The position numbers and the translations under genes were made by a program. Below, piece by piece: positions 16,065 through 35,164 of a DNA stretch of 64,000 bases (the stretch's first letter is position 1; every line of letters starts with the position of its first letter). The stretch covers positions 507-64,506 of the forward strand of contig JAICMG010000003.1 of the NCBI GenBank assembly GCA_025929365.1, written 5' to 3'. This DNA comes from Frankiaceae bacterium (lineage in GTDB: Bacteria; Actinomycetota; Actinomycetes; JAFAQI01). The notes under the pieces are model-generated. The model was not told the origin of the DNA. It was given only the letters and a program-made list of their open reading frames with translations, and did not search any database.

Positions 16065-16924
16065 GCACTGACCATGCCGCCCCTCCCGGGGCCGCCGAAG
16101 TCGCGCGCTTCGTCGGCCTGCTCCAGATCGAGTCGCTCGGCAAGGACACCTTCCGCGCCTGGAACCCGCCGCATCCGAAGGACCACATCCAGCAGTCGCT
16201 GTTCGGCGGTCAGGTCGCGGCGCACGCGCTGCGGGCGGCTCAGCTCACCCTCGACAACGATGATCACCGCGTCCACTCACTCCACGGCTACTTCCTGCGA
16301 CCCGGCAAGGACGATGCGCCCACTGACCTGCGGGTGGACCGCATCCGCGACGGCAAGTCGTTCACCACGCGGTCGGTCGTCGCGTTCCAGGGTGACGAGG
16401 CGATCTTCAACCTGACCGCGTCGTTCCACCGCGACGAACCGGGCGGAGACTTCGCGACGGCGATCGCCCACGACGTGCCGCGGCCGGAAGAGTTGCTCGT
16501 CGACCAGTCGCCCCGGTTCGACCGGATGGGCGTGGACTCCCCCTTCGAGCGGCTCGACGTCCCCGGGTTCTCCTTCCGCGATCGCAGCGAAGTACCGAGG
16601 CGAGCGATGTGGATCCGGCTGCGCGCCCCGCTGCCGGATGATCCGGCGCTCCACGCCTGCGCGATCACCTTCATCTCCGACATGGGAGTGCTGGGCGCGG
16701 TGCGGGCGACGCGCGGACGGATGCGAGCGCCGGCAATGGCCGCGAGCCTCGACCACGCGGTGTGGTTCCACCGGCCGGTGCGAGCCGACGAGTGGCTGCT
16801 CTACGACATCGCCGCGAAGTCGACCTCCGGCGCCCGCGGACTCGGCATCGGGACGATGCACACGATCGACGGCACGCACGTCTTGACCGTCGGCCAGGAG
16901 GGCCTGGTCCGCCTCGCGGACTAG
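16061..16924 (+). CDS. tesB: Acyl-CoA thioesterase II (TesB-like, double hotdog)
   Basis: TesB-family sequence (…FGGQVAAHALRAA…, …GLGIGTMHTIDGTHVLTVGQEGLVR…). Confidence 0.75.
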   Translation: MSTDHAAPPGAAEVARFVGLLQIESLGKDTFRAWNPPHPKDHIQQSLFGGQVAAHALRAAQLTLDNDDHRVHSLHGYFLRPGKDDAPTDLRVDRIRDGKSFTTRSVVAFQGDEAIFNLTASFHRDEPGGDFATAIAHDVPRPEELLVDQSPRFDRMGVDSPFERLDVPGFSFRDRSEVPRRAMWIRLRAPLPDDPALHACAITFISDMGVLGAVRATRGRMRAPAMAASLDHAVWFHRPVRADEWLLYDIAAKSTSGARGLGIGTMHTIDGTHVLTVGQEGLVRLAD

Positions 16925-18252: not shown

Positions 18253-18263
18253 GTCCGCGGTGA

Positions 18264-19559: not shown

Positions 19560-19590
19560 CGCCCATGACGGGTGCCGGCTTCGCCGGCGC

Positions 19591-19782
19591 TCATTCGACG
19601 ATCACCGCGCTCTCGGGGCAGTTCGCCTCCGCGAGATGCGCCGCTTGTGCCTGATCGTCGGCGACGCCGCCGTCGCCGATGACCTGTCCGTTGCCCTCGT
19701 CGTCCTCGCCGAAGAGGGCCGGCGCCAAGGTGTAGCACCGGCCGTGCCCCTGGCACTTGTCCTGATCGATCCGAACCCGCAT
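19591..19782 (-). CDS. Ferredoxin (3Fe-4S/4Fe-4S, P450 redox partner)
   Basis: 63 aa, CQGHGRC...C pattern. Immediately upstream of the P450 gene. Confidence 0.8.
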   Translation of the reverse strand: MRVRIDQDKCQGHGRCYTLAPALFGEDDEGNGQVIGDGGVADDQAQAAHLAEANCPESAVIVE

Positions 19783-19812
19783 CGCCTACCTGCTCCCGTC
19801 GCCGTCACTCGA

Positions 19813-21423
19813 TCAGCGCGAGTTGACCGTATCGCTGCGGCCGCCGGTGGCGCGCTCCCGGTACTCGTCGCGCAGCCTGCGCTTGTAGAGCTTGCCGTTG
19901 TCCTCCCGTGGCAGCCGGTCGACGAAGTCGACGCTGCGAGGGCACTTGTAGCCGGCGAGCCGCTCCTGCGCGAAGCGGAGCAGTTCGCCTTCCAGCGTGC
20001 CGTCGTCGGTGACTCCTGGCTGCAGCTCGACGACTGCCTTGACCGCTTCGCCCCACTCCTCGCTCGGTACGCCGATCACGGCAACGTCGCCGACCGACGG
20101 GTGAGTGATGAGAACCGCCTCGATCTCGGCGGGGTAGATGTTCACGCCGCCGGAGATGATCAGGTTCGCGCTGCGGTCGGTGAGGAACAGCCAGCCGTCG
20201 GCGTCGAGGTAGCCGACGTCGCCGACCGTGTAGTAGTCGCCGCTGTAGGTGTTCGCGGTCTTCGTCTCGTCGCCGTGGTAGGCGAACCGGCCTTCGTCGG
20301 GTGCTCGGAGGTACACGGTCCCGGCCGCGCCTGGCGGCAGCGCGACGCCGTCGTCGTCTCGGATCTCGACCTGGCCCGGCTCGGTGAGTCCCACAGTGCC
20401 GGGCCGGGCCAGCCACTGCTCGCTGTCGACGATGGTGTTGAGGCCCTCCGTCGCTCCGTAGTACTCCCAGATGATCGGCCCGAGCCAGTCGATGATCGCC
20501 TGCTTCACCGGCACCGGACACGGCGCGGCACCGTGCCAGATCTGGCGCAATGAGCTGACGTCGTACTTCGCCCGGACCTCTTCGGGCAGCGAGAGCAGCC
20601 GGTGGAACATCGTCGGCACCAGGTGCATGTGCGTGATGGCGTGCTGCTCGACGAGCCGGAGCATTCCCTCGGCGTCCCAGCCATCCATCAGCACGATCGT
20701 GACGCCGTATGCGAACGGAAGACTCACGCCGAACAGCAGCGGCGCCGCGTGATAGAGCGGGCCCGTGACGAGACTCGCGTCCTTGCCCGACTGATAGCCG
20801 CCGGAGTCACGAAGCCGCTGCATCATGACCATCGACTGGTCGGTCATCCGACCGGTGATCTCGCGGTGCACACCCTTGGGGCGCCCTGTCGTCCCCGACG
20901 TGTACATCATCGTCATGCCGAGCTTCGCGTCGGGGAGATCGTCGGTCGCGTGACCGGCGAGCGCGTCGTCGAGCGGCACGAAGCCAGGGATGTCGCCGCC
21001 GATCGACAGCTTGAGCGCCGGCGTGGCGGCAGTCGCGGCGGCTTGCGCCACCTCGCTGAACCGGATGTCGGCGAACAGGGCCTTCGCGCCGCAGTCCGCG
21101 ACGACGTACGCCGCTTCCTCGGCGGTGACGTGCCAGTTGATCGGGGTGAGCCGCAGCCCGGAGCGGTTGATCGCCTGGGACACCTCGAGGAACTCGAGCC
21201 GGTTCGAGCACAGCAGCGCGACGCTGTCGCCGTACTCGATCCCGGCCGCGCGAAGCATTCGCACGATCTGGTTGGCACGCCCGTTGAGGTCGGCGAAGGT
21301 GGCGACGGCGTCCGGCGAGATCACGGCGGGAACGTCGGGCTGAAGCTGTGCCCAGAACGAACCGAGGGACCCGGTCCGGATCGCCTGCTCGAGCGCGCTC
21401 TCGGTCATCCCACTCCTCGTCAT
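19813..21423 (-). CDS. AMP-dependent synthetase/ligase (fatty-acyl-CoA synthetase family)
   Basis: AMP-binding motif [13 protein letters not shown]. The real start is [13 protein letters not shown] (21423 or 21408); the track ORF upstream of that is a GC-frame extension. Confidence 0.85.
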
Positions 21424-21505
21424 CGCCGCGGTTTGGCCATCTGACCACGTTCTAGCCGGGTCGCGTAGCCAAACTGGAGACGAGGATCGGCGAGGAGGTG
21501 ATCGG

Positions 21506-22135
21506 GTGCGGTTCCGGAACCGGATCGACGCCGGCACGCAGCTCGCCGACCGGCTCGCGACGGCCGAGCTGACCGACCCGGTCGTCCTCGGCTTGCCGCG
21601 CGGCGGGATCCCGGTGGCGTGGGTGGTGGCGAAGCGGCTGGCCGCGCCGCTCGACGTGTTCGTGGCGCGCAAGGTCGGCGCGCCCGGCCACCAGGAGCTC
21701 GGCATCGGCGCCGTCGCAGAAGGCACCGACGACGTGACGTGGACGGAGAGCGCCCGCTTGGTCGGGTTGTCGGAGCTGCAGCTCGACGACCTGGCGCTGC
21801 AGACCCGCGCCGACGTCCAGCGCCGGATCCTCACCTACCGCGGCACCCGGCCGCTCGCGCCGGTCGAGGACAAGGACGTGATCCTCGTCGACGACGGCCT
21901 GGCGACCGGCGTGACCGCAGAGGCGGGGCTTCGCGCACTGCGGGGCGCACAGCCACGGCGGCTGATCCTGGCCGTCCCCGTCGGCGCGCCCGAGACCGTC
22001 GAGCGGCTGAGGCTCGTCGCGGACGAGGTCGTATGCGTCGCCACACCGGAGCCGTTCTTCGCGGTCGGCGAGTGGTACGACGACTTCCGCCAGACGACCG
22101 ACGAAGAAGTCCGAAAGATGCTCAAGCCGGGGTGA
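21506..22135 (+). CDS. Phosphoribosyltransferase-domain protein
   Basis: PRTase motif [16 protein letters not shown] gaggagg precedes the GTG at 21506. Confidence 0.7.
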
Positions 22136-22139
22136 TGTC

Positions 22140-22667
22140 TCACAGACCGCGCGAGTAGCTGACCAGCTCCGGGTACGGCGGCCAGCCCGTCGGCCTGCTC
22201 TGCCCTTGAAGTACCCAGCCGCGTCGCTCATAGAAGCCGCGGGCTCGCGTGTTGGCCGCGAGAACATCGAGCGTGGCTCGGGAATGTCCGCGCGACACGA
22301 TCTGGGCCAATGCATGGTCGTGAAGCTGCGACGCAATTCCCCGATTCCACTGCTCGGGGACGACGAACAACGCTTCGAGGCTGTCATCGATTGATCCGAC
22401 GACCCCAACGGGAACCTGGTCGAGCATCGCGATCGTCACGCTTGTCTTGCCTTGCAGCCGCTCAGTCCACTCGTCGCTGACCACCTGCGCCGGAAACGGG
22501 TAGATCGCCTGATCAAAGATGTGGGCGTAGCCCACGACCGTTGACGCGCGTTGGACCGCCACACATGCGTCGAGATCAGCCGCGACCGCGATCCGAAGGT
22601 CAACCTCCACAATGCCCGTCATTGCAGCAGGTGGATCGACGGCCGCGCTTCCACGTTTCGGCGCCAC
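22140..22667 (-). CDS. GNAT family N-acetyltransferase
   Basis: Acetyl-CoA-binding motif ...RGIASQLHDHALAQ... with a GNAT fold. Confidence 0.65.
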   Translation of the reverse strand: MAPKRGSAAVDPPAAMTGIVEVDLRIAVAADLDACVAVQRASTVVGYAHIFDQAIYPFPAQVVSDEWTERLQGKTSVTIAMLDQVPVGVVGSIDDSLEALFVVPEQWNRGIASQLHDHALAQIVSRGHSRATLDVLAANTRARGFYERRGWVLQGQSRPTGWPPYPELVSYSRGL

Positions 22668-23300
22668 TTACCTGAGCATGGCCCGCCGCAGCGCGGTGAT
22701 CCCTTCGCCGGACAGATCCTCGAGCGCGACGGCGCGCCCGGCCATGGTCATCACGAGCGCCTCGGCAGGGCCCCGGACCTCTGGCCCGCTGCCGTGCGAC
22801 CAGTCCGCATCCGTGGCGACGAGCCGCAGGCCGGCGATGTGCTTTTTGGCGCGGAAGACGATGCTGGTCGCGACGAAGTCCGCGACGGCAACGAGATGTG
22901 CCTCAGGCGGATCGCGCCGGATCCCGAGCGGCCGGCAGATGTCCTGACCGTGAACGAAGACGTGAGTCAACGCACTGATCGGCGAACCATCCGCGGATGC
23001 CGCGAGATCGGCCGCGGTATCGCGGAAAGCGCGCAAGATCACCGCGGGGTCCGCCCGACCCCGTCGCTGGCCGTCAACTGCCACCCAGCGGTTGTAGTCG
23101 AAGCGATAGCGGATCAAGCCAGAGACAACAGCGCGCGGCTTAAAGGCTCCTTCGGCGCCTGCAGTCACATGTGCGAGCACATCTCTCACACGCCAGGCGT
23201 CGCACAGCGACGGCGAGCTCCACTGGTCGTCGGTGAGGTCGGCGAGGGCGTCCGCGAGATCGTGAGTCTCCACCCGAACCGCCAACCAGCCTTCCGACAC
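22668..23300 (-). CDS. Maleylpyruvate-isomerase-family / mycothiol-dependent (DinB_2-like) metal-binding protein
   Basis: N-terminal WSSPSLCDAWRVRDVLAHV motif typical of the TIGR03083 family. Confidence 0.6.
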   Translation of the reverse strand: MSEGWLAVRVETHDLADALADLTDDQWSSPSLCDAWRVRDVLAHVTAGAEGAFKPRAVVSGLIRYRFDYNRWVAVDGQRRGRADPAVILRAFRDTAADLAASADGSPISALTHVFVHGQDICRPLGIRRDPPEAHLVAVADFVATSIVFRAKKHIAGLRLVATDADWSHGSGPEVRGPAEALVMTMAGRAVALEDLSGEGITALRRAMLR

Positions 23301-23359
23301 AGGCCGATTCTCGCCGACGGTGGGAGCAGCCGATAAATCGGATTGAAGGCGGCGAAGGG

Positions 23360-23953
23360 GTGGGGCAGGCTCCGCGCGTGGAGGCGTGCACGTTTCGGAT
23401 CGCGACCGACCCTGACGCCGAGGCAGTCGCTCGGCTGCACGCGGAGAGCTGGCGGCGGCACTACCGCGGCGCCTACTCGGACGCGTTCCTGGACGGCGAC
23501 GTTCTCAGCGACCGACTGTCGGTCTGGTCGGACCGGTTGAACGTCCCGTCCGAGACGACGCGCACCTTTGTGGCCGAGCTCGACGGCGTACCGGTCGGAT
23601 TCGCCCATGTCGTCCTCGACGCCGATCCGATCTTGGGCGCATTGCTCGACAACCTCCATGTCGATGTTGCCAACCAGCGCAGCGGGATCGGCTCGGCTCT
23701 TATGGCTCGCAGCGGCCGATTCGTCGCCGAGGCGCGGCCCGCGTCGGGCCTCTACTTGTGGGTACTCGAGCAGAACACTGCCGCGCAGGCCTTCTACCGG
23801 GCGATCGGCGGGGAGCCTGCCGACTCGGCGCCCGTCGAGACGGTCGGTGGTGTCGAGGGCCGCCTCAACGGCACGCCGACGAAGGTGCGCTACACCTGGG
23901 CCGAGCCATCCGTCCTCGAGACCTCTGACCTGCGGCGATCACTTAGGTCGTAG
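23360..23953 (+). CDS. GNAT family N-acetyltransferase
   Basis: Acetyl-CoA-binding motif NQRSGIGSALMAR. The start may be the internal V/M. Confidence 0.65.
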   Translation: MGQAPRVEACTFRIATDPDAEAVARLHAESWRRHYRGAYSDAFLDGDVLSDRLSVWSDRLNVPSETTRTFVAELDGVPVGFAHVVLDADPILGALLDNLHVDVANQRSGIGSALMARSGRFVAEARPASGLYLWVLEQNTAAQAFYRAIGGEPADSAPVETVGGVEGRLNGTPTKVRYTWAEPSVLETSDLRRSLRS

Positions 23954-24218
23954 CGAGTTCCGCGCCCCAAGGATTGTCGACGTACAGCAGCCACCCGCCC
24001 GCGTGGTCGCGCCGCGCGATCTCGCTGCCCCGGAAGTCGAGCTCGATCGTGTGCCGTCCGGGGTGGCCACGGTCGCCGACCACCGGGAGCAGAGCAGCGC
24101 GACATCGCCGTTGTCGAACGCATAGGAGGCTTGGATCTGCATCTTCGGACTCATGGCCAGGAGCTGCTGGAGGTGCTTCCGGATCGCCTCGGCGCCCGTG
24201 GTCCGAGCGCGACGTCAC
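23939..24218 (-). pseudogene. Frameshifted, N-terminally truncated NTF2-like (SnoaL/DUF4440-type) gene remnant
   Basis: Two overlapping minus-strand frames together encode ...IQASYAFDNGDVALLCSRWSATVATPDGT / HTIELDFRGSEIARRDHAGGWLLYVDNPWG. That is the C-terminal half of an NTF2-fold protein split by a frameshift. Confidence 0.45.
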
Positions 24219-24239
24219 CGAGCTCGTCGTCCGCGGTCA

Positions 24240-24438
24240 CTCGACCCGCGAGGTAGCCCAGCAACTCCACCTGTCACCGCTCACCGTGCAGGACCACCTG
24301 AAGTCGATCTTCGCGAAGACGGGCGTGCGCACCCGACGAGAGCTCGTATCGCGGATCTTCGTCGACCACTACGAGCCACACCTCAAGGTCGGGGCCACCC
24401 CCACCTCGAGCGGCTACTTCCCGGCGGCCGGTGACTGA
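24240..24438 (+). pseudogene. LuxR-family HTH C-terminal fragment (no receiver/N-terminal domain)
   Basis: Only ...SERDVTELVVRGHSTREVAQQLHLSPLTVQDHLKSIFAKTGVRTRRELV... is recognisable. The upstream part of the track ORF is antisense to the NTF2 remnant. Confidence 0.5.
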
Positions 24439-24449
24439 CCCCGTCGTTC

Positions 24450-24473
24450 TGTAGGAACCGACTGGACTTGTCC
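24450..24473. repeat. Tn7-like left-end terminal inverted repeat (plus a subterminal yTGTCC repeat at 24509-24515)
   Basis: 16 of 24 positions match the right end, including the terminal TGTAGG and the internal TGTCC. Confidence 0.8.
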
Positions 24474-25025
24474 TAGGCCGAGCGTGGCCGGGACACCGTT
24501 CCACGTTAGTTGTCCAGGGAATTCCGCGGATAGATGCCCATTCCCCTCTTCGAGCTCGCCAACAGTGCGTTGCAACGCGTTCCGCACGGCAACCGTCTCC
24601 TGCCCGACCGCAACGTTCTTGCCAGGCATCAATACCCCTGCCCGTCGTCACAACACTCGGGGCGCTCTCACACGAACTGGACCGACGTAAGGGGGACGGG
24701 TCCGTAGCAGGCTCCCCGTGCGAGACTCCCAGCCGCAACCTGTGACGGCGGTGCCGGAGGTGTCGAAGGCTGGGGCAAGTACTGCCCGCTACGCGCGCGG
24801 GTGGGGCGCGGTCGCGCGCTAGAGGAGCGACGCGGTCGCGCTTGCTCACGTTGCCCAAGCCGAAGGATTCGGGAAGGACCGATTCGTACGATGGCCGTGC
24901 TAGGCGTGGCGCTGGTCATCGGCGCGCCCATCGTCTCTGTCCTCGCTGGCTTCGCGTTGACGAGGTGGACGGGTGTCGGCGCGAACGAGCTATTTTGGCG
25001 TGGCCTTGTCTGGCGCAGGCATGTG

Positions 25026-25301
25026 ATGGATCTTCCGCCCGTGGTCGAGAACTATCAGTGGACGTCGTTCCCTGAGGCCGCGCGGTATCTCGGGCTTGCC
25101 GAAAGGCGGCTCCGCGCATCGGTCTCGGCGGGAGTCCTCAAGCGAGCAACTAACTATGCGGGCGAGGTGGGCGTCACCCGCTCCTCCATCGAGCGGGAGC
25201 TGGAATGGCGCCGGAACTCGACAAGGAAGGACCGGGCGCGGCGGGCAGCACTTATCGCCCTTTCCGTCTTGTTCGGGCCCTACAAAGACTATCGTCGGTA
25301 A
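25026..25301 (+). CDS. Excisionase/AlpA-like helix-turn-helix protein (element cargo)
   Basis: WTSFPEAARYLGLAERRLRASVSAGVLKRATNYAGEVGVTRSSIERELEWRR resembles Xis/AlpA-type HTH proteins. An alternative longer start at 24891 adds a TM helix. Confidence 0.4.
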   Translation: MDLPPVVENYQWTSFPEAARYLGLAERRLRASVSAGVLKRATNYAGEVGVTRSSIERELEWRRNSTRKDRARRAALIALSVLFGPYKDYRR

Positions 25302-25417
25302 CTGCCGTTGTAAGACGGGTGCCCGTGCGGCAGAAGCCGCCTCGCATGACCCACGCGTCGTGGCCAACTTTCCGCCACGCAATGGCAGAGTCGCGGCGTG
25401 TCGTGCCCGCGACGACA

Positions 25418-26371
25418 TCAGCGGCTGTATCTCTGCCGGTGGTCGAAGTAAAGCTGTCCGATCACGAGACTCCATGACTGATGTGGTCGCTGAGCACACG
25501 CCGCAACCGCCGCGCTTGTGAAAGCAGTCCGCAGCCGTTCAGATGCCGGACGCCCTGACGATTTACCACCACGCAGCGTGTTGAGGACAGTACTAGCTTC
25601 GGCCAACCGGGTCGTGGCGGGAAAGGCCAGAAACCCCCGGCAGGTACCTAGTTGACGACCAGATAGGCCTAGACCTCCCAAGGGCGGCTGTGAAGTGGCG
25701 ACTTCGTTGGCGGGAGGCGCGACGACGTGCACGGCGGTCCCGAAGTCGGACAACTGTTCAGTGATGTCCGCAGAGCGACCGCTCCCGGTGCCGGTCAGAT
25801 GGAGTTGCCGAAGTCGGCCCTCCTGATCGATCCATATCGTGATGGTGCCGACTACCCCGGGGCCCCACGCGCGAAGGCGCCCGCTAAGCTCGGTAGTTGA
25901 GACGTCGCCCAGTGAGGTCTTTCCCCTAGACGTTACTCCCAACAGTCGGTGGCTGAGTGAGCTCAACGTTGTTACCGGATCGCCTAGGACGTCTAGCAAC
26001 CCACCCAGCGCCGGCCGATTGGCGGCAGAGGAGACACGTAGCCACGTGGGGCCGCCGCTTCCAGCAGCGTTTGTGCGCGAGATATACGTCGTCGCGCCGA
26101 CGATGATCAGCCGCGCCGTCTGACCCGCCGCGACAATCTTCAGATCCGCACGTTTGGAGGCCCAGTCCACCACTCCCGCGCCGCGAAAGGCCTGCGCCGC
26201 GCGACCCTCGTCATGCACAGTGCCGGCTACCGACATCCGGAAGCTATGCGCTGCGGACAGGGCCGAAGACACGCCGACCAACAACGTCTGTGAGCCCTGG
26301 TTGCCGTTCGGGCTTGCTCCGCATCCCGCGACCATCGCGCCGGCAATACTCATGGCAACGGCGGGCCCCAT
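25418..26371 (-). CDS. Putative lipoprotein (element cargo)
   Basis: MGPAVAMSIAGAMVAGC has a signal peptide with a VAGC lipobox. The 3' part of the ORF is low-GC and may be non-coding read-through. Confidence 0.5.
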   Translation of the reverse strand: MGPAVAMSIAGAMVAGCGASPNGNQGSQTLLVGVSSALSAAHSFRMSVAGTVHDEGRAAQAFRGAGVVDWASKRADLKIVAAGQTARLIIVGATTYISRTNAAGSGGPTWLRVSSAANRPALGGLLDVLGDPVTTLSSLSHRLLGVTSRGKTSLGDVSTTELSGRLRAWGPGVVGTITIWIDQEGRLRQLHLTGTGSGRSADITEQLSDFGTAVHVVAPPANEVATSQPPLGGLGLSGRQLGTCRGFLAFPATTRLAEASTVLNTLRGGKSSGRPASERLRTAFTSAAVAACAQRPHQSWSLVIGQLYFDHRQRYSR

Positions 26372-26403
26372 CCGGCGGTGCAAGAATCGAACACCTACCT
26401 TCG

Positions 26404-26664
26404 CTAACACTCAGCCATCCCAGAATTTGCTCCTGAAGAACGATAACGCTCGAGGACAGGTCGGCGGGCCGAATCCGCGCTCCGGGCGTAGTACGCCGGC
26501 AACAGCCCGGAAATCACGGAAGCACCTTGCCCTACTCCGAGCACCGTCCCGACAGTCAGGTGAAAGCCGACCAATCCACCTGCTCCGGAAGAGCAGGCGT
26601 TGGGGAAACGCAACGCCCGTAGGCAATCACCCACGATGAAGTCAACGCACCGGCCCCTCCCCAA
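26404..26664 (-). CDS. Small ORF immediately downstream of the RHS toxin tip; candidate immunity protein
   Basis: Its position is the only evidence. An 86-aa ORF starts 1 nt after the toxin stop and has a hydrophobic segment. Confidence 0.2.
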   Translation of the reverse strand: MGRGRCVDFIVGDCLRALRFPNACSSGAGGLVGFHLTVGTVLGVGQGASVISGLLPAYYARSADSARRPVLERYRSSGANSGMAEC

Positions 26665-27957
26665 TCACACGCGCCAGGGCCGCGAGTGCCATAGACCGCC
26701 ATCTGAGGAAACGACCTTGTACTCATTATCGGAATGCCCTAAGATCCTCCACTGCCATTTCGGGTAAAAGAAGACCAGAGTTCTCTCTTCTTCGTAGATT
26801 GTCCTTACCGAGGAGTAGCCAGACCGACATTCGTGGTACTGATTGCATTCGGTCCAAGTTTCCTCCTGAAACTCAACAGCTTCGCGCGTTTGGTGCCGTT
26901 GGTTGAACGCTAACTCTAAAATGACGTCACAGCCGGGACAGGAATCACCCTCGGCCTCTTTTTCAGAACTGTCTCTCCAGGGCCCGATGACGTCATATTT
27001 ATCTTGAAGCTGCATTATAGGAGTGGTCTGTTTCCAGACCGCTTTCGCGCGGCGGTGGTGGATGGGCCGAGGGGCCGTCCCAGACAAGCCGCCCCCTGAA
27101 TCGCCGACCACAGAGGTGCCGTCGAGGTCAAAGCTGTTGACAGGATCTTGGTTGCAGTAGTCGTAGTCATTGGCGCTACCGCCGGAGACCGGATCCACCG
27201 TGGTGAAGCGGCCCAGGTACGGGTCGTAGACCCGTTCGCCCATACTGACCAGCCCAGCGAGGCCGCCGGAATCTCGACGTTTGCCCCCTAGCCAACCGTA
27301 GTTGGCCGGATGCGTCGTATCGGCGGCGCGCGGTACGCCGAACTCCGTGCTCTCGAAGTAAGCCGTCATCGAGGGCGTCCCGGTTGGCGGGTCAGTGAGG
27401 GTAGCGATCACGTCGCCGTGAGGATTGACGATCTGCAGCGCGACGGAATCCGCGCGAGGCGCTTCGGCGCTCTGGTGGTAGTGGGTTCGGATCGCCGCGA
27501 GGTTTCCGGCGATATCGGTGTAGTTGGTCGTCGACGAGCCGTCGGAGCCGACGATCGACGATGCTGAGTCGCCCGGATCCGCGTAGATGTTGGTGGTGGT
27601 GAGACCTGTCGCGCTGCTCCCCTGTGACAGGATTCGACCCGCAGGGTCGAGATTGAATGTGTCGGTGTTGGTGCCGTCGTTCTCGCTGCGGACCATACCG
27701 TCGGCGTAGTAACTGAGGGCGACGCTACCCGTCCCGCCGACGGCGGTGTCCGTTGCTGGAAGAGCGGTGATGCGGCCCATCGGGTCGTAGGTGTAGCCGG
27801 CATTGGTGATGTGGTCAGCCGAATCGTGCGACCAGTAGGTCGTGGTTGGCGTGGTCGCCGTGGAACAAAGACCGTTGCTGCTGGGATACGTGACCAGAGC
27901 CGAGTCATACGCCTGCTGGTCTGAGCGCGGGCACCGGCTGCCGGACTGAGCCCTTCG
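26665..27957 (-). CDS. Orphan RHS/YD-repeat C-terminal fragment ending in an uncharacterised polymorphic-toxin domain
   Basis: YD repeats (YTYDPMGRITAL...). RHS core end motif GRFTTVDPVSGGSANDYDYCNQDPVNSFDLDGT. It ends in a ~160-aa low-GC tip (…CPGCDVILELAF…YHECRSG…). The frame opens right after a TAA at ~27958; the first ATG is at 27780. The N-terminal >1000 aa of a normal RHS protein are missing. Confidence 0.75.
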   Translation of the reverse strand, partial: RRAQSGSRCPRSDQQAYDSALVTYPSSNGLCSTATTPTTTYWSHDSADHITNAGYTYDPMGRITALPATDTAVGGTGSVALSYYADGMVRSENDGTNTDTFNLDPAGRILSQGSSATGLTTTNIYADPGDSASSIVGSDGSSTTNYTDIAGNLAAIRTHYHQSAEAPRADSVALQIVNPHGDVIATLTDPPTGTPSMTAYFESTEFGVPRAADTTHPANYGWLGGKRRDSGGLAGLVSMGERVYDPYLGRFTTVDPVSGGSANDYDYCNQDPVNSFDLDGTSVVGDSGGGLSGTAPRPIHHRRAKAVWKQTTPIMQLQDKYDVIGPWRDSSEKEAEGDSCPGCDVILELAFNQRHQTREAVEFQEETWTECNQYHECRSGYSSVRTIYEEERTLVFFYPKWQWRILGHSDNEYKVVSSDGGLWHSRPWRV

Positions 27958-28652
27958 TTAAGTAGCGGGCGCAGATCAAGGCCGACCAGGAGCAGGGTTA
28001 CTGGCAGGGTGTTTACGAGTGATTTGAAGTGGTTCGCAACCTCTCGGTCGTCGCGACGGGCCATGTTGAGGAAGTGAGCCTCGTCAACGATGAGGAGCTT
28101 CGTTTCACAGGCCAGCACACAATCAGCCGCGCGGAACATGAGGTCGGTTGCGGTAGCGCGATGTCCGCCGGGGTGCGCGTAGAACCGGCACAGCATCGAA
28201 CTGAACGCCTTGGTCGTCGTGTTGCCGGCCAGCGTGACATGGGCAACTGGTATCCGCACATCGCCCGAGGCGGTGTGCGTTCCGTAGGCCTCGATCTGCT
28301 GGCGATGGAAGTCCCGGCCGAACGTCTCTGCGATCGTGGACTTCCCCACGCCGGCAACTGCGTCGACCGCTGCGCTGGTGCGCACGCGGTGGCCGTCCTG
28401 ACGATTCGACGCGAGCAACAGACGGAGACGGCGGTGAACCGCGTGCATCTGGGGAGTCCTGATGGGGCCGAGATTGGCGTGCCAGTATGCCCGCAGGTCG
28501 TCGTAGCGAGTGCGCTCGGCCCTGCCCATGCGTTTGAGCTCCGCGGGCTCATATGTCGCCGGCCTGACCGGAGGCGTGCGGTCGCAATACTTGAACCAAT
28601 CCTCCTTCACGTTCAAGTTGAGAAGGCACTCGGGGTTCTGTCGCGTGTTCAT
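27950..28652 (-). pseudogene. tnsC: tnsC/tniB-like AAA+ transposition ATPase, C-terminally truncated at the RHS junction
   Basis: Walker A VAGVGKSTIAETF and Walker B LLIVDEAHFL are present. Homology stops at ...LVGLDLRPLLNEGL (~27950). Beyond that the track ORF reads the RHS DNA in another frame. Confidence 0.7.
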
Positions 28653-30727
28653 ATCGCGATGTCCAGGGTGTCGGCGTAGTAGTCAGCCTCGTCCAACTCT
28701 TCGTCGTCGACCTCGAGATCCGGTTCGGCAAAGCCAAGGGTGGCCTCATCCGGCTCGATCCGCCCGGTCGGTCCAGTGGACGGGGTACTCGCATCGCCGT
28801 CCAGCCCGAGCGTCCGCAGATGAAGCGCCTGCTGGAGGGCAATCCGCTTCTCGGGCCGGCCTTCTGCGGCGCCTTGGCGCCACCTTTCGACGTGCTCCTG
28901 GATGACGCGGAGGACGTCGTCGTGACGCCCGGTCTTGATCGCCACCTGCTTAGCGAAGTTGAGCGCGTCGAGCGAGAACGGTCCGCCGAGAACGTGGCGG
29001 TGCGTCCAGTCGAGCCGATGCCAGAGGTGCATTTCATCGTCGGCGTCCTGAAAGTAGACCTGGCGAATGTCGTTGGGGTCGTAGCGAATCGGCCACTTGC
29101 CCCTGTGCACACCGCCATACTTGCTCCGGGTATTGACGAGGTCTTCAAGTACCGCTCCCTGGTAGCGGAGCCCGTGCAGCTCGACTCCGTACCTCTGGAT
29201 GCTGCGCCATGCTGTCGGCAAGAAGTCGAAGGCCAGATCCCAGTCGGTCAGGATCCGCAGGTACCCGGCCTTGGTCAGGGCGTACTCGTGCATCTCCAGC
29301 GGAGAGATTGCGACGCCTGGCGCTTCGGGTATGACCAGCCCAGAGTGCGGACGTCGGTGGTAGACCTCAGCAATCCACCCTCGGATGATGGCGTCGAGCT
29401 CATGGATGAAGTAGACCGCCGTCTTCTCGACATCGAGGCCGCGGCTATAGACATCGGGCCCCTTATAACCTGGCAGGGTCTCGAGCAGATCCTCGCGGAG
29501 CGTTCGGAAGAACCGCTCAACCGGGGCCTTGTCAGTCGGCGTGTAGGGCCTTCCGGGCTGGATCGAGATGCCGAGCCGCGCACACACCGACTTCACGTGC
29601 TCTGAGATGAAGACCTTTCCGTGGTCGATCACGATTGTGTCGACCACGTCAACCGACTGCCGCTCCGTCGTGTCGTCGCTATCGATGTGAATCACGGTGT
29701 TCGGTACACCGGAGTACGGCCCCTCGCTCATCGTTGCACCAGGGTGCGGGCTTGGATGGATCGTTTCGTAAAGAACAGCGGCAACGTCCACGGCCTTCGT
29801 TGATACGGGTCGCAAGCACATGCCGACGATGCGCCTATCGCAAAGATCCATCGCGACGGTGAGCTCTGCCTCCACCCAGCGTTCGGTGATCGGGTCGATC
29901 CCGAAAACATCGAGCCGAGTCGTGTCCAGCAGGACGTACTCGCCTGGTCTGGTTGCGACGAGGCGCGAGTACATGACGCGTGGGCCGTTCGCGATCGAGC
30001 GCTTCTGCTTCGTCGAACCTCGGAAGGCATTGGTGCCCTTCGTGAGTCGGTCGAGAGCCTTGTACGCAGTCGACGTCGGCGGGCACAGCACAACGCCGGG
30101 GCCGTATTGCGTATCGAGGCGTTCCTCAACGAGCTGCAAGACACGCTTCTTGGTCGGCCTGCTCCGGTTTGTGTGCTCAGCCAGGACGGCCCGCACGGCA
30201 TCGGTCCACCTGGTGTCGATGTCACGGCCGGCGTTGCCGTTGCGTCCGCGCCGGCGATCAACGAGGCCCTCAACCCCACGATCGCGGTACAGGCGCACCC
30301 AGCGGCGAAGCGCTCGTTCCGTCATGTCGAGTTCGGTGGCCTTTGCGAGAAGGCGTTCACCCCACGGCCGCTTCGGGTCGTACTCAGGTCGGGGGTCAGT
30401 GGCATCCGGGTCATCCGGTCGGGGCAGTCCCTGGATGAGTTCGTCAAGGTGGGCGGCGCGCATGATCGCCTGCGCTTCAACCTCCGGCGGGAGATTGGAC
30501 ATCAGCGGGCCAATCCCAGCTGACTTAGGACGTGAGACAGGACTAACGGAGAAGGTCGGGTCACTGAGCAGAGTCGACGTCAAGATGACGCAACGCCGAC
30601 CCGTCCATGACTGCAGGGTCGTACGCCTGCCGTCCAAACCAACGACTTGGTACGCGTCGCCGTCGTAGTAGACGGTAACGCCGACGCTGAACGTTTGAAC
30701 CGATTCCATGGCGCGGTCACCCTTCAC
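28649..30727 (-). CDS. tnsB: TnsB/TniA-like DDE transposase (Mu-transposase/integrase core)
   Basis: 692-aa protein with an rve-like DDE core (…VLLDTTRLDV…, …IVIDHGKVFISEHV…) and a Mu-transposase C-terminal region. Confidence 0.8.
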   Translation of the reverse strand: MKGDRAMESVQTFSVGVTVYYDGDAYQVVGLDGRRTTLQSWTGRRCVILTSTLLSDPTFSVSPVSRPKSAGIGPLMSNLPPEVEAQAIMRAAHLDELIQGLPRPDDPDATDPRPEYDPKRPWGERLLAKATELDMTERALRRWVRLYRDRGVEGLVDRRRGRNGNAGRDIDTRWTDAVRAVLAEHTNRSRPTKKRVLQLVEERLDTQYGPGVVLCPPTSTAYKALDRLTKGTNAFRGSTKQKRSIANGPRVMYSRLVATRPGEYVLLDTTRLDVFGIDPITERWVEAELTVAMDLCDRRIVGMCLRPVSTKAVDVAAVLYETIHPSPHPGATMSEGPYSGVPNTVIHIDSDDTTERQSVDVVDTIVIDHGKVFISEHVKSVCARLGISIQPGRPYTPTDKAPVERFFRTLREDLLETLPGYKGPDVYSRGLDVEKTAVYFIHELDAIIRGWIAEVYHRRPHSGLVIPEAPGVAISPLEMHEYALTKAGYLRILTDWDLAFDFLPTAWRSIQRYGVELHGLRYQGAVLEDLVNTRSKYGGVHRGKWPIRYDPNDIRQVYFQDADDEMHLWHRLDWTHRHVLGGPFSLDALNFAKQVAIKTGRHDDVLRVIQEHVERWRQGAAEGRPEKRIALQQALHLRTLGLDGDASTPSTGPTGRIEPDEATLGFAEPDLEVDDEELDEADYYADTLDIAI

Positions 30728-31448
30728 GAGTTGGATTGGTCAACACGCTGGTGTGGTCGATCCAGACCGTGAGATCTGTCTGTAAGTGCTGTAGCCACAG
30801 TGCGTGCAATAGCGCCGGCCGCACGGCCGGCTTCGAGTAATCACGAGACAAGCGCGACTCAAGCGCTCCGATCGTGTCGCCGAGTTGCCACGCCTCGACC
30901 ACGCGATCGACGAGATCCGCCGACACTGATGCGCTCCGCCGATACCCGGCCAGAAATCTGACGTTCGTCGCGACGACCAGGTCGACGCCTGTCCACAACT
31001 CGTGACCCCAACCGCGGGACCCCAGCGACTCGTCGATTGCGTCAAAATCGGGACGATGAGGCGCCCGTGGTCTGCGATTCCAGTCCGGCGGCTTGACGTT
31101 GACGACAACCACCTCGCCGTTTCGACGGCGTAGCAGGTAGTCAGGAATGTGCTTACGCGGGCGCGCGTCCCGGTCTATGTACTCGAGGCAAAAAGGCTGC
31201 GCCGCGATCGCCACGACCGTCGGGTCAAAGTCGGCGAGTTGAAGCCGAAGCAGCTCAAGACGACTCTCGTAGAGCACGTGAGTGCGTGTCGTTGCGGTCC
31301 AGTACTCACCCGGATGATGGCGCTGCCCGTGATACGAGGCAGGCACCCGAATGGGAGCGCCTTCGAACAACGACGCAGTGTCGATTGTCCGTAGCAAGGC
31401 ATCCACAATCTCGCCCCGCGAGTCCCGGTATCTGATCTTCGTGTCCAT
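30717..31448 (-). CDS. tnsA: TnsA-like endonuclease
   Basis: TnsA N-terminal endonuclease motifs YESRLELLRL... and HIPDYLLRRRNGEVVVVNVKP (E/D/K catalytic triad). Confidence 0.75.
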   Translation of the reverse strand: MDTKIRYRDSRGEIVDALLRTIDTASLFEGAPIRVPASYHGQRHHPGEYWTATTRTHVLYESRLELLRLQLADFDPTVVAIAAQPFCLEYIDRDARPRKHIPDYLLRRRNGEVVVVNVKPPDWNRRPRAPHRPDFDAIDESLGSRGWGHELWTGVDLVVATNVRFLAGYRRSASVSADLVDRVVEAWQLGDTIGALESRLSRDYSKPAVRPALLHALWLQHLQTDLTVWIDHTSVLTNPTREG

Positions 31449-31639
31449 TCCAAACCTCCGTGATGGCCGTAGCGTTTATGCCAAACACGGACGTTAGATT
31501 GGGGTCTGGACCAAGCGTTTGTGCGCATTGAAAGTCCGGCGTGTCGCGCCATCGCGACACAGAAGATCCGGCGACCACCGACAAAACCGGCGACGACACA
31601 ACTACGGTTACGGGGCGAATCCCGAAGAGGAGGTAGGGC

Positions 31640-32092
31640 GTGCCCAAGCCGCGACGGCCTCTGCCAAGAGACCTCGTTCGTGGGTCATGGCCAAACGGCG
31701 TCCCGATCGACCCCGCGAGCGGAATCGCGATGCTGCAATCATTTGTAAGTCGCATTCGCGAGGAGACCTCCGGCATGTCTTCTCGCGCCGTCGGGGACGC
31801 AATCGGCGTACCTGCCTCGACGATCATCCGGATCTTCACGGGGACTGGCTGGCCCGATTGGTACACCTGGACTCAGCTGGAGTTGAAATTCGGTGCCTTG
31901 GCCCCGAACAAGCCAAGCACGGCCGGAACGTGCTGCGCGCTCAGATCAGCGACCGGCGAGGACGGCCGCTGCGGTCTGCAAGACATCAATGGCCGTCGGC
32001 CACTCAGGCGAACCACGACCGAGGTACAGGCCGCAGCGACCATGCCCTCCCGAAAAGGGCGAAAGAAGCCGGAAGGCGCGCGCTCGTCATAG
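31640..32092 (+). CDS. XRE/Cro-like HTH protein inside the transposon right end
   Basis: Strong RBS aagaggagg, then GTG at 31640. HTH segment MSSRAVGDAIGVPASTIIRIFTG. The C-terminal part is low complexity. Confidence 0.45.
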   Translation: MPKPRRPLPRDLVRGSWPNGVPIDPASGIAMLQSFVSRIREETSGMSSRAVGDAIGVPASTIIRIFTGTGWPDWYTWTQLELKFGALAPNKPSTAGTCCALRSATGEDGRCGLQDINGRRPLRRTTTEVQAAATMPSRKGRKKPEGARSS

Positions 32093-32164
32093 GCACGGAT
32101 ATCCGTGGAGGCCGGCCAACTGCCCGAGAACGCGGACAAGTAGCGGACATGCACGGCGAGATAC

Positions 32165-32188
32165 GGACAGGTTCCTCGGGAACCTACA
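32165..32188. repeat. Tn7-like right-end terminal inverted repeat; three subterminal CGGACA(A/T/G)G repeats at 32128-32170 are candidate TnsB-binding sites
   Basis: Read directly from the sequence. Confidence 0.8.
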
Positions 32189-32195
32189 CGTTCCC

Positions 32196-34781
32196 CTAGT
32201 TGTGCGGCATGTCGACGAAACGGGAGTAGTGCAGCTGCGAGGAGACGACGACGTCTTTCGTCGGACCGTTTCGGTGCTTGGCCACGATCAGGTCCGCCTC
32301 GCCGGCGCGCGGTGACTCCTTCTCGTAGTAGTCGTCGCGGTGGAGCAGGATCACCATGTCGGCGTCCTGCTCGATCGCGCCGGACTCGCGAAGGTCGGAC
32401 AACTGCGGGCGCTTGTCCGACCGCTGCTCGGCACCACGGTTCAGCTGGCTGACCGCAACGACCGGTACGGCCAGCTCCTTTGCGAGCAGTTTGAGCGACC
32501 TGCTCATCTCCGCGACTTCCTGCTGTCGGTTCTCCACGCGCTTCGGGCTGGTCATCAGCTGCAGGTAGTCAACCGCGACCAACCTCAGGTCGTGGCGCTG
32601 CTTGAGCCGACGCGCTTTGGCGCGGATCTCCATCATGTTCATGTTCGGCGAATCGTCGATGAACATCGGTGCCGAGGCAACCTCACCCATACGACGGGCC
32701 AGCTTGTTCCAGTCGTCGTCGTTGAGCGAACCAGTTCGGATCCTCGTCAGCGGAATCCGGGCTTCGGCCGCGAGCAGCCGCATGGTGATCTCGCTCTTCC
32801 CCATTTCCAGCGAGAACAGAACCGCCGCCTGACCGTGACCGATGCTTGCACTGCGGAGAAAGTCCATCGCGAGCGTGCTGTTGTGCGTCGGTATCAATGA
32901 TCGACCGGCGAGATACATGTGGTCGGCGTTATCGATCTGAACGCACCTGACCGGCACCGATTCGACCTTGCGCACCTGAGTGATGAAGCGCGTCGAGGCG
33001 CGGTGATTCGGCCGACGCCGCCGTTCCTTGTGAGCGAGTCGCTTGCGCTCGAGTGCGAACACCTCGCCCTCAGTGGTGAACGTCAGCGTGTAGGCGATTG
33101 AAGACGCAGCGGTGCGTCCCTTGACCTTCTTCTCGAACACGGCGCAGCGGTACCCGAGACTGACGATGAGTTCGCGGACGTCATCGGCGAGCCGTCGACT
33201 CGTCGAGGTGAACTGCACCGAGCCGCTGTGCATCACGGTCCCGTCAGTGTCGAGGAGGCCCGCTAGGAGGCTGCGGCGCTGCGCCTCGGACGCACGGAGG
33301 TACGCCACCGGAATGTGCTTGTTGCCCAGCACGCCGAGCGTCCGCAGCTGGCCCTTGAAAGTCCCGTACGCGGACCAGCATGGTCGGCACAAGCCGTAAC
33401 CGGTCGACGCCGGGCCGCCGCAACGTGGACACGTGGGCGCTGGCACGGAGCCGCTCGTCATCGGGGCCTTCCCACCACACGATCTGCCACACGTCCGAAC
33501 CTGAGTCGTCCGGGGCAGGAAGACCTTCCCGCACACAGCGCACGTCTTCTGGCTGGTCACCGGCTCGCCGTGCAAGCGGACCGAGTACTGAAGCCTTCCG
33601 GCGAGCTTGGTGACGTGGTAGCCCTCGGCCTCTATGTACATCGCGATCTCCGGATCGGCTGATGTGTAGCGGCCACCCGCACTATGGCCGTCGCCGAGCC
33701 AGACGCCAAGCGTGTACGGGGCGATCAAGAGATCATCGCGATGAGGAAGTTCGAGCGGTTCCGCCACCGCGACGGCATGGTTCAGCCGACGATCCGCGGT
33801 GGGGCAGTGGACGGTGGCGGCGATCTCACCCGTTGTGCAGACTGCGGAGCCAGTGGAACGAGGCAGGCCCTCCTCCTGAGCCGCCCGGCGCGACCGGCGG
33901 GTCTGCGTCAGCCATTGGTGCTGCTCGTCGGCGACGATGACCGTGCCGTCGTCGAAATGCACCTCGTAGCAGGGCCGGTCCGTCATGACCTCGGTCGCAG
34001 CAACAACTCTCGTCGGACGTCCGTCGGCGCCGATCAGGACGTCGCCGACCGCGACCTCGCCCATCGTCGTCCAGCCCGTGGGCGTCGCCAGCGGAGTATC
34101 GAGTGCCAGCGCCTTGCCCTGCCCGGGACGTCCGGCGACGACGATGAGCTGGCCGTCGTGCAAGCCGTTGGTCAGCTCGTCGAGGTCGCGGAAGCCGGTC
34201 GGCACTCCGAACAGCTCGCCGCCACGGTTTCCGATCGCCTCGATCTCGTTGTACGTCGCCCACATCGCGGCCTCGAGCCCGATGTAGTCCTCGCTGGTCC
34301 GCCGCTCGACCACCTCGTAGACGGCCTGCTGCGCGCGGTCGACAACGTCGTCGACCTCTCCGCCCATGCCGCTCGCCGCGCCGTACCCGAGCTGCACCAC
34401 CTTCGTGCCGGCCTCGACGAGCCGCCGCAGAATCGCACGCTCGCGGATGATCTCCGCGTAGTAGCCGGCGTTGGCGGCGGTCGGAACCGACGCGATCAAC
34501 GTGTGGAGATACGGCGCGCCGCCGATCCGCTCGAGCGATCCGCCACGGGTCAGCTCGGCGGCGACGGTCACCGGGTCGGCCGGCTCACCCTTGCCGTACA
34601 GCTCGAGGATCGCGTCGTACACGATCTGATGCGCCGGGCGGTAGAAGTCGGTGGGCCGCAGCACCTCGACGACGTCGGCGATCGCGTCCTTCGACAGCAG
34701 CATGCCGCCGAGCGCGCACTGCTCCGCCGCGATGTCCTGCGGCGGCGTGCGGTCCAGCTCGATGTTTCCGCCGCTCGGCAT
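32196..34781 (-). CDS. dnaB: Replicative DNA helicase DnaB, interrupted by an intein in the P-loop
   Basis: N-terminal ...PPQDIAAEQCALGGMLL. The Walker A GRPGQGK|...|STLAMDF is split by a 411-aa insertion. The C-terminal RecA-like domain is intact. ATG at 34781. Confidence 0.9.
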   Translation of the reverse strand: MPSGGNIELDRTPPQDIAAEQCALGGMLLSKDAIADVVEVLRPTDFYRPAHQIVYDAILELYGKGEPADPVTVAAELTRGGSLERIGGAPYLHTLIASVPTAANAGYYAEIIRERAILRRLVEAGTKVVQLGYGAASGMGGEVDDVVDRAQQAVYEVVERRTSEDYIGLEAAMWATYNEIEAIGNRGGELFGVPTGFRDLDELTNGLHDGQLIVVAGRPGQGKALALDTPLATPTGWTTMGEVAVGDVLIGADGRPTRVVAATEVMTDRPCYEVHFDDGTVIVADEQHQWLTQTRRSRRAAQEEGLPRSTGSAVCTTGEIAATVHCPTADRRLNHAVAVAEPLELPHRDDLLIAPYTLGVWLGDGHSAGGRYTSADPEIAMYIEAEGYHVTKLAGRLQYSVRLHGEPVTSQKTCAVCGKVFLPRTTQVRTCGRSCGGKAPMTSGSVPAPTCPRCGGPASTGYGLCRPCWSAYGTFKGQLRTLGVLGNKHIPVAYLRASEAQRRSLLAGLLDTDGTVMHSGSVQFTSTSRRLADDVRELIVSLGYRCAVFEKKVKGRTAASSIAYTLTFTTEGEVFALERKRLAHKERRRRPNHRASTRFITQVRKVESVPVRCVQIDNADHMYLAGRSLIPTHNSTLAMDFLRSASIGHGQAAVLFSLEMGKSEITMRLLAAEARIPLTRIRTGSLNDDDWNKLARRMGEVASAPMFIDDSPNMNMMEIRAKARRLKQRHDLRLVAVDYLQLMTSPKRVENRQQEVAEMSRSLKLLAKELAVPVVAVSQLNRGAEQRSDKRPQLSDLRESGAIEQDADMVILLHRDDYYEKESPRAGEADLIVAKHRNGPTKDVVVSSQLHYSRFVDMPHN
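32880..34112 (-). other. DnaB intein (Ala1, C-terminal HN, +1 Ser; class-3-like) with a LAGLIDADG homing-endonuclease domain and a Cys4 zinc ribbon
   Basis: The intein spans ALALDTPL...LIPTHN. Splicing would restore GRPGQGKSTLAM. LAGLIDADG motifs are LGVWLGDGHS and LLAGLLDTDGTV. Trp-67, Cys-390 (block F) and Thr-409 fit a WCT triad. Cysteine clusters are CAVCGK...CGRSCGG and CPRCGG...CRPC. Confidence 0.8.
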
Positions 34782-35164
34782 CGGTACGACTTCGCCGATG
34801 CTCACGCCGTCGACCCTCCCGATTACCCCGTGTGACGTCAGCCAAGGACAGCAGCCCCCACCGACAGTCCGTGACGCTAAGCGGCGAAGCGGCCCAACTC
34901 CACGCTCGGGCCGGACGGATCGCCCGGCGCTGTGGGGAGGGTTGTGGGCGGGATGTGAACAACCCGCGATTCGCGGTGCACAGCCTCTGGACAGCGCCGT
35001 GGATAACACCGGTGACCAACCCGCGACACACCCTCTGACCTGCAAAAACGGTCATCCACGGGTGTGGGGCGCAAAAACCTGCCGAGCAAACCCGCAATGA
35101 ACGGCGCATGGCCGCCGTTCGTGGCACGTGGCGCTGGCTGGTTGCGTCCCGACGCCGGTATCGC

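Follow-up and report, generated by a model that had tools for sequence, protein, structure and literature searches.

A Tn7-like deletion derivative next to dnaB in a Frankiaceae bacterium, and the dnaB 3' end as a probable TnsD-type attachment site of its family

Tn7 of Escherichia coli, which uses TnsABC together with TnsD and has its attachment site attTn7 downstream of glmS, combines a heteromeric TnsA/TnsB transposase with the AAA+ regulator TnsC and a TniQ-domain selector (PMC10293859). Its ends, TGT...ACA, contain multiple TnsB sites that are denser at the right end. It duplicates 5 bp of target on insertion and lands directly behind the stop codon of a conserved, essential gene, which then adjoins its right end and tns genes (PMC10293859). 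An Actinobacteria-dominated clade of Tn7-like elements, clade 2 of Benler et al. (2021, mBio, PMC8649781), has been described as lacking experimental characterisation, and a Tn7-like element has been reported in about 40% of annotated Streptomyces genomes (bioRxiv 10.1101/2024.11.13.623437). The element analysed here lies in a stretch of 64,000 nucleotides, called the window below, from contig JAICMG010000003.1 of a Frankiaceae bacterium; all coordinates are window positions, with minus strand (-) and plus strand (+). It occupies positions 24450-32188 (7.7 kb, termini TGTAGG...CCTACA), directly behind dnaB. Its placement past the stop codon is like that of Tn7, and its family shares with Tn7 the type of ends, the 5-bp duplication and the gene set, the selector being found in the relatives of the window element. 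Host phylum and gene set match Benler clade 2 and the profile NF033179 'TnsA_like_Actin', and by TnsA, TnsB, TnsC and end structure the element is assigned to the Actinobacteria-dominated clade.

The reading proposed for this locus is a joint one and is held with a probability of roughly 0.9. A TnsD-like TniQ of the family would read the 3' coding sequence of dnaB, TnsC and TnsAB would place the right end at a fixed distance downstream, and the window copy would be a deletion derivative that lacks the 3' end of tnsC and tniQ. This reading is built on the element's ends, target-site duplication (TSD), genes and truncation, and on insertion that recurs at one site and in one orientation in the sequences compared. 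The boundaries of the element are as follows.

24445-24449, no strand: left TSD copy CGTTC, identical to 32189-32193 and the sole match among 37 candidate end pairs
24450-24520, plus strand: left (tniQ-distal) end, with a TGTAGG terminus, putative TnsB sites TGTCC at +20 (24469-24473) and +62 (24511-24515), and an inverted copy at 24491-24495
32119-32188, minus strand: right (tnsA-proximal) end, with a TGTAGG terminus and TGTCCG at +20 (32164-32169), +40 (32144-32149) and +51 (32133-32138)
32189-32193, no strand: right TSD copy CGTTC, directly outside the right terminus

The left terminus at 24450 reads TGTAGGAACCGACTGGACTTGTCC and opens with TGTAGGAACC, while the reverse complement of the right terminus, which finishes at 32188, is TGTAGGTTCCCGAGGAACCTGTCC and opens with TGTAGGTTCC; the two agree at 17 of their first 30 positions. 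The dnaB stop codon is 32196-32198, so that the TSD begins 2 nt past the stop and the final base of the element is 7 nt from it. An earlier reading of this DNA from its letters alone (the sequence-only reading) had proposed a Tn7-like element at exactly these positions, with true ends and a 5-bp CGTTC duplication, and the sequence is as it was read. There are 37 TGTAGG/CCTACA pairs spaced 2-30 kb apart in the window, and identical 5-bp flanks occur in one, that of the element, with 0.067 expected. Inward TGTCC occurs three times in the last 70 nt of the right end, against 0.06 expected (Poisson P ~4e-5), and twice in the left end (P ~2e-3). Over the whole window the pentamer is not enriched (121 copies vs 141 expected) and is clustered at the element ends. 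The hexamer TGTAGG itself is found 18 times in the window against 7.9 expected, a count reached in 0 of 100 shuffles, and its non-terminal copies have no end-like context. It is unlikely that the TGTAGG termini and the CGTTC duplication came together by chance. The element thus has TGT...ACA termini, several asymmetric subterminal putative TnsB sites and a 5-bp TSD. The subterminal arrays that had been described on both sides hold in part: the three TGTCCG of the right end and the left-end sites are present, whereas the left end, with two inward TGTCC and one inverted copy, does not form a symmetric array.

The layout of these ends recurs across the family. In 44 distinct family right ends, TGTAGG is followed by a hexamer repeated three times, at +20, +40 (±1) and +51 (±1), and the hexamer varies by element (TGTCCG, TGGCGA, TGAGCA, TGATCA, TGCGCA, TTAGCA and others). 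The right end in the window is an exact fit, with the hexamer TGTCCG. Sixteen other elements of 6.4-17 kb have TGTAGG...CCTACA termini with perfect 5-bp duplications; in their left ends the first site stands at +20 and further sites at +39 to +72, and the window left end (+20, +62) is similar. Both window ends are taken as real because their layouts and the 5-bp TSD match those of the family elements. The sequence-only reading had named chance matching of CGTTC and of the terminal repeats as what would undo it; the low expectation for such pairs and the 44 right ends of the same layout answer that concern.

The transposition genes are all minus-strand genes transcribed inward from the end that borders dnaB, as had been stated for the tns genes.

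30717-31448, minus strand: tnsA, endonuclease subunit, full length, 243 aa (NF033179 TnsA_like_Actin, E61/D103/K119)
28649-30727, minus strand: tnsB, DDE transposase, full length, 692 aa (rve_3, Mu-transpos_C, helix-turn-helix (HTH))
27906-28652, minus strand: tnsC, TniB-type AAA+ regulator, N-terminal 249 codons only (AAA_22, TniB; Walker A GVGKST, Walker B LLIVDEAH)
26665-27905, minus strand: orphan Rhs fragment with YD repeats, Rhs-associated core and C-terminal tip, without the N-terminal rhs body, abutting the truncated tnsC

The tnsA gene with E/D/K motifs and the DDE/Mu-type tnsB of the sequence-only reading are both full length with their family residues invariant. TnsA scores 203 bits against NF033179 (cut-off 110) and 22.3 bits against Pfam PF08722, under the cut-off of 26.5 for that family. 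It is a TnsA-type endonuclease with the E-D-K residues, and E61, D103 and K119 are invariant across 27 relatives. These residues are the predicted catalytic triad, judging from motif position (YES..LE / PD / VxVK) and a weak alignment with PseTnsA (E = 0.5). Searched against solved structure chains, as a single sequence or as a profile, TnsA gave no significant match. TnsB is a full-length DDE transposase with an rve core and a Mu-transposase C-terminal domain (Mu-transpos_C 36 bits, rve_3 27 bits), is 64% identical to its closest homologue across 98% of its length, and matches the solved TnsB of entries 8rdu and 7svw (E = 2.5e-14). It keeps every invariant residue of an 18-member family alignment, including D262/D267, D362 and E398, which are predicted to form the DDE triad.

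The regulator and the selector are different. The Walker A and B motifs reported for tnsC are present, whereas the gene itself is only an N-terminal fragment that stops at codon 249 of 372. The closest relative, locus L001, has a TnsC of 372 aa; the window TnsC is 63% identical to its residues 12-249, and the similarity ends at residue 249, position 27906; past the break the tnsC open reading frame (ORF) runs on out of frame across the unrelated Rhs fragment. The missing C-terminal third (~123 residues) was not found in any of the six frames of the 64-kb window, so that a complete AAA+ regulator TnsC is lacking (residues 1-249 of ~372). A tblastn search with the TniQ of L001 found no TniQ in any frame of the window either, in keeping with the earlier statement that no tniQ or tnsD is present, and the element thus encodes no TniQ/TnsD-family selector. 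Because a complete tnsC and a tniQ were looked for and not found, the window copy is classed, on its gene content, as a defective, non-autonomous deletion derivative of a tnsA-tnsB-tnsC-tniQ family rather than as an autonomous member. The cut in tnsC at codon 249 accounts for the absence of tniQ, since in the closest relative tniQ follows directly after tnsC. By analogy with Tn7, the copy would be unable to select a target or to activate transposition alone. For practical annotation it is a defective transposon, a decayed remnant with an orphan Rhs toxin tip.

Near-universal gene order in the family gives this conclusion its weight. In the 79 loci that were read, the order is tnsA-tnsB-tnsC-tniQ almost throughout, with a TnsC of ~350-372 aa and a TniQ of ~800-1000 aa. 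L001, whose TnsB is the one 64% identical to that of the window, has tnsA, tnsB, the 372-aa tnsC and an 802-aa tniQ directly after tnsC; a second member of the window lineage (clade A), L003, also has tniQ directly after tnsC, on a contig that ends before the right end. One could read the window copy instead as an intact autonomous transposon for which tnsABC suffices, or which draws on a targeting factor that is unlinked or supplied by the host, so that dnaB would be targeted independently of tniQ. Full-length tnsA and tnsB, two perfect ends, a tnsC fragment that keeps Walker A and B, and locus L014, which also lies at dnaB and has no recognisable TniQ after tnsC, would fit such a view. It is nevertheless very unlikely, in light of the complete TnsC followed by tniQ in nearly all 79 loci, the abrupt stop of TnsC homology with its out-of-frame continuation across the Rhs fragment, and the tniQ directly after tnsC in the two closest relatives. 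After tnsC, L014 (6350-8011, a Frankia nepalensis CN4 contig) carries a 554-aa ORF that has no match to TniQ or to any other Pfam family and is unlike the other TniQs.

The target gene and its surroundings in the window are as follows.

32196-35045, minus strand: dnaB, replicative helicase with a LAGLIDADG intein, ORF intact, start codon uncertain (DnaB, DnaB_C, LAGLIDADG_3)

Directly upstream of it is rplI. The last ~14 dnaB codons (32199-32240) end in ...LHYSRFVDMPHN. The sequence-only reading had put forward the dnaB 3' end as a candidate new attTn7-like site, to be checked by searching other actinobacteria for TGTAGG-ended tns elements 3' of dnaB. Such a search found ten further elements in the same position and orientation, so that eleven independent TGTAGG-ended elements, the window element included, stand behind dnaB in one orientation. 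The contig of L001 opens with a dnaB tail ...LHYSRFVDMPHS*, followed by 9 nt and then TGTAGG. A right end against the dnaB stop in the same orientation is also found in L010, L014 (Frankia nepalensis), L017, L023, L029, L048, L088, L090 and L104. The dnaB gene is left intact in 10 of the 11 cases. Insertion is thus site- and orientation-specific, next to a conserved gene, and the ten further independent elements are the reason for which the dnaB 3' end is regarded, from the sequences compared, as a real TnsD-type attachment site.

The insertion register points in the same direction. In 10 of the 11 elements, window included, the duplication begins 14-16 nt after the conserved Met codon of the DnaB tail motif, (R/K/H)-F-x-x-M, while the distance from the dnaB stop codon to the terminus varies between 6 and 12 nt. 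The eleventh element, L029, has inserted within the ORF of a DnaB with a longer tail, and there the Arg-Phe codons are 24 nt from the duplication, as compared with 23-25 nt in the others. The register is therefore fixed to conserved codons and not to the stop, as the Tn7/TnsD/glmS paradigm predicts. In L017 (8254-21866) and L023 (1156-15947), tandem arrays stand behind dnaB, in which a complete newest element with a perfect TSD adjoins dnaB and older ones lie farther away; the duplication in L017, GGACT, takes in the first T of the resident element. These arrays therefore imply repeated use of the same position. Neighbouring elements of the two arrays carry different TnsB-site hexamers, as target immunity limited to elements of the same kind would lead one to expect.

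The shared position could also be put down to ancestry, if all dnaB-adjacent elements descended from one ancient, vertically inherited insertion. The hosts are indeed all Actinomycetota, and TGTAGG termini and orientation are common to the elements. Such a history is exceedingly unlikely: genomes with 88-94% identical DnaB have no element at all, the dnaB elements differ in hexamer (TGTCCG, TGGCGA, TGAGCA, TGATCA) with TnsBs 45-64% identical to that of the window, the arrays of L017 and L023 record repeated insertion at one nucleotide register, and the same family is found behind other genes elsewhere.

To relate the selectors to their sites, the TniQs of the family were compared. The TniQs of dnaB-associated elements have an N-terminal TniQ domain followed by HTH_1 (LysR-type) and other HTH domains, an architecture that suggests direct DNA binding. 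In 38 of 41 comparisons a TniQ and its nearest neighbour belong to the same attachment class; two of the six classes are defined by end sequence and so are not fully independent. Recurrent site-specific insertion at dnaB and the link between TniQ similarity and attachment gene are both evident from the loci compared. By its position, the stretch of the last ~14 dnaB codons would be the recognition sequence of the family TniQ, and the 3'-end stretch CACTACTCSCGSTTCGTSGACATG is a candidate TniQ site.

Under the reading proposed here, the intact ancestor, or the window copy helped in trans, would have inserted by cut-and-paste at the attachment site at the dnaB 3' end. TniQ, through its N-terminal TniQ domain and C-terminal HTH array, would bind the conserved last dnaB codons (...H-Y-S/T-R-F-V/A-D/N-M...) and recruit the AAA+ regulator TnsC. 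TnsC would then position TnsA/TnsB so that the right end is joined at a fixed distance downstream, the first duplicated base lying 14-16 nt beyond the Met codon, or 23-25 nt beyond the Arg-Phe pair, and dnaB would stay intact while the 5-bp duplication is made. A later deletion or rearrangement would have cost the copy the final third of tnsC together with the whole of tniQ, leaving tnsC fused to the orphan Rhs toxin fragment. TniQ binding, the role of TnsC and the immobility of the copy follow the Tn7 paradigm (PMC10293859; bioRxiv 10.1101/2025.07.27.667033) and may be expected to apply here.

Upstream of dnaB the window is collinear with genomes that encode a DnaB of 88-94% identity; these have the same tail (...CACTACTCGCGCTTCGTGGACATGCC...) and no element, for which reason the element is an insertion relative to the closest genomes available. 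Behind dnaB the flank is variable. Two of these loci (L114, L115) have dnaB, then an M20 peptidase gene, then a homologue of window 21459-16136, and L118 becomes homologous to the window again 49 nt past the dnaB stop, at window 14827. The distance from the dnaB stop to a conserved glycosyltransferase gene (window 14828-32195) is accordingly 49 nt in L118, 1.8 kb in L117, filled by the M20 peptidase and shared genes in L114 and L115, and 17.4 kb in the window. Where the closest relatives have the M20 peptidase gene, window 21460-24449 holds a phosphoribosyltransferase-like ORF, a 261-aa ORF, a GNAT gene and a short LuxR-type HTH gene, all reading towards dnaB. The remaining borders of the variable region, at ~14.83 kb and ~21.46 kb, were searched for older TGTAGG ends, and there were none. 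It is speculation that repeated Tn7-like insertion and decay built the variable island of 0.05-17 kb downstream of dnaB. The window DnaB carries its intein, with the LAGLIDADG homing endonuclease, in the ATPase domain; the 94%-identical DnaBs (458 aa) are without it and several more distant ones (744-787 aa) have it. Since the region beyond the element also varies, with window 14828-24449 missing or different in some relatives, the locus might be seen as an ordinary variable region with transposase remnants, chance terminal repeats and true boundaries elsewhere, but the probability of this is negligible against 0.067 expected chance end pairs with matching flanks, a right end that reproduces the family-specific +20/+40/+51 layout, and an end at the same register behind dnaB as in ten other elements.

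Several observations weigh against the proposed combination of a dnaB-reading TniQ and a deleted window copy. That TniQ would bind dnaB is suggested only by position. For the clade A TniQ, L001 is the one relative that connects it with dnaB, and this TniQ is 26-29% identical to the other dnaB-associated TniQs, no closer than to TniQs from NlpC/P60 sites; this would mean that dnaB specificity evolved repeatedly or that TniQ and target are less tightly linked than assumed. L014, as described above, has no recognisable TniQ after tnsC. The clean empty junction of the LuxR-type gene and dnaB (CACAACTAGGGGAACGACGGGGTCAG), which the sequence-only reading expected in relatives, did not materialise: it was absent from an exact-match scan of Joint Genome Institute (JGI) metagenome contigs, and in the nearest genomes the dnaB end is unoccupied, with other genes behind it. 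The contig probably comes from a metagenome assembly, and its tnsC-rhs junction could in principle be an assembly error. A chimera is argued against by the identical TSD that flanks both ends of the element.

The present analysis identified the attachment site at dnaB, the insertion register and the layout of the termini (TGTAGG plus hexamer at +20/+40/+51). The word dnaB is absent from PMC8649781, and no paper linking Tn7-like elements to dnaB was found in the open-access literature, although an earlier description elsewhere is possible; within that literature the site appears to be undescribed. With slightly better than even confidence, a broader claim can be made: across Actinomycetota (Mycobacteriales, Frankia, Nanopelagicales, Acidimicrobiales, Solirubrobacterales), the dnaB 3' end would serve as an attTn7-type homing site that has not been described before, used by at least two TniQ/TnsD clades that are ~26-29% identical, and possibly by a third type (L094), in the same register to the ...Y-S/T-R-F... 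codons. In L094 (1513-4271, metagenome contig Ga0182741_1000750), the dnaB stop is followed by 11 nt, then TGTCGAGATGC..., a tniQ-like gene and a tnsA-like gene. This locus may represent a distinct type of element whose terminus and gene order differ. Its presumed duplication would begin 15 nt after the Met codon, as in the TGTAGG family.

The family itself is large. More than 2,000 TnsB homologues were found at E <= 1e-10, nearly all in actinobacteria or actinobacteria-rich metagenomes, and a scan of one genome per species gave 555 TnsB relatives. They are common in the chromosomes and plasmids of Streptomyces, Frankia, Rhodococcus and Nocardia, and the plasmid copies of Streptomyces, Rhodococcus and Nocardia stand under generic annotations. 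A search for TniQ homologues returned 14 matches, one of them an identical protein (P0121) encoded on a JGI contig. Using an alignment of clade A TniQs, a metagenome scan recovered distant relatives only (<=45% identity; <=30% over full length) and four extra dnaB-adjacent cases. Family members also stand directly after NlpC/P60-type cell-wall hydrolase genes or after small membrane-protein genes near conjugation- or secretion-like genes; loci at such non-dnaB sites are L018, L055, L061, L065, L070, L082 and others, L006, L013, L030 and L032, and L008, L009, L011 and L021. These insertions suggest further attachment sites, some of them perhaps on integrative or conjugative elements.

The remaining genes inside the element are the following.

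26404-26664, minus strand: 86-aa ORF just downstream of the Rhs tip, from the ORF list
25418-26410, minus strand: putative lipoprotein cargo, with a weak partial match to NF053532 (SCO4651 lipoprotein family; 53 bits vs cut-off 65) and a signal/lipobox-like N-terminus
24801-25301, plus strand: 166-aa ORF without family match, cargo or not a gene
31640-32092, plus strand: HTH gene facing the right end (HTH_3, weak), shortened in comparison with the 291-aa gene of the relative

The Rhs fragment scores 50.7 bits against TIGR03696 (cut-off 32.5) in a reading frame that is open to ~27957, and no full-length rhs gene is present within the element. From its position, the 86-aa ORF is a possible immunity gene for the Rhs toxin tip. 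The HTH gene is 57% identical over 116 aa to its counterpart in L001, and the homology covers only the first 115 residues of the 291-aa gene there. The distance from tnsA to the right end is 740 nt in the window, compared with 1171 nt in L001.

Tn7-type elements are valued for bringing large cargo to one predictable, harmless chromosomal position. Each new attachment site thereby offers a natural safe harbour and insight into how the DNA-binding domains of TniQ are retargeted. A dnaB-linked site would exist in most Actinomycetota, including mycobacteria, Frankia and the relatives of Streptomyces, and would be usable with the native machinery of an intact member. The downstream flank of dnaB would also deserve attention as a hotspot for accessory genes. 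For annotation of this abundant and uncharacterised family, a simple rule can be given: TGTAGG, a hexamer at +20/+40/+51 and a 5-bp duplication.

Other classes of mobile element were also considered for the window element. A CRISPR-associated transposon was rejected, as there is no Cas domain in any element ORF and no repeat array. A Mu-like transposable prophage was rejected because the element holds only tns genes, the HTH gene, the Rhs fragment and the lipoprotein gene, and a tyrosine-integrase island was rejected on gene content. The Tn5053/Tn402 type was rejected because TnsA is present and there is no resolvase ORF. Elements of that type (TniA-TniB-TniQ-TniR) resemble the family in their DDE transposase with a Mu-type C-terminal domain, TniB-type ATPase, TniQ and 5-bp duplication. 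Unlike the window element, which has TnsA and no resolvase, they are without TnsA, carry a resolvase and target res sites.

The closest comparison therefore remains with Tn7 and with its retargeted relatives. In Tn7, as in this family, the register is apparently set by the coding sequence and not by the stop codon (PMC10293859). The two differ in target, which is glmS for Tn7 and dnaB for the window element, and in tnsE, which is absent here. Sequence similarity between them is low, given that TnsA has no significant match among solved chains and TnsB matches only at E = 2.5e-14. The selectors also differ, as the family TniQ is a protein of 800-1000 aa with LysR-type and other HTH domains, and in the window copy tniQ and a third of tnsC are missing. 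Tn6022, which uses TniQ and TnsF at comM, and the nrdD-associated archaeal elements likewise show how modular DNA-binding domains linked to TniQ retarget a core machinery (PMC10293859; bioRxiv 10.1101/2025.07.27.667033). Tn6022 differs in that it inserts inside comM and uses a separate TnsF, whereas the selector of the present family appears to be one large TniQ and the target gene is left intact in 10 of 11 cases. Seen beside these systems, new attachment genes are the expected kind of variation in this family.

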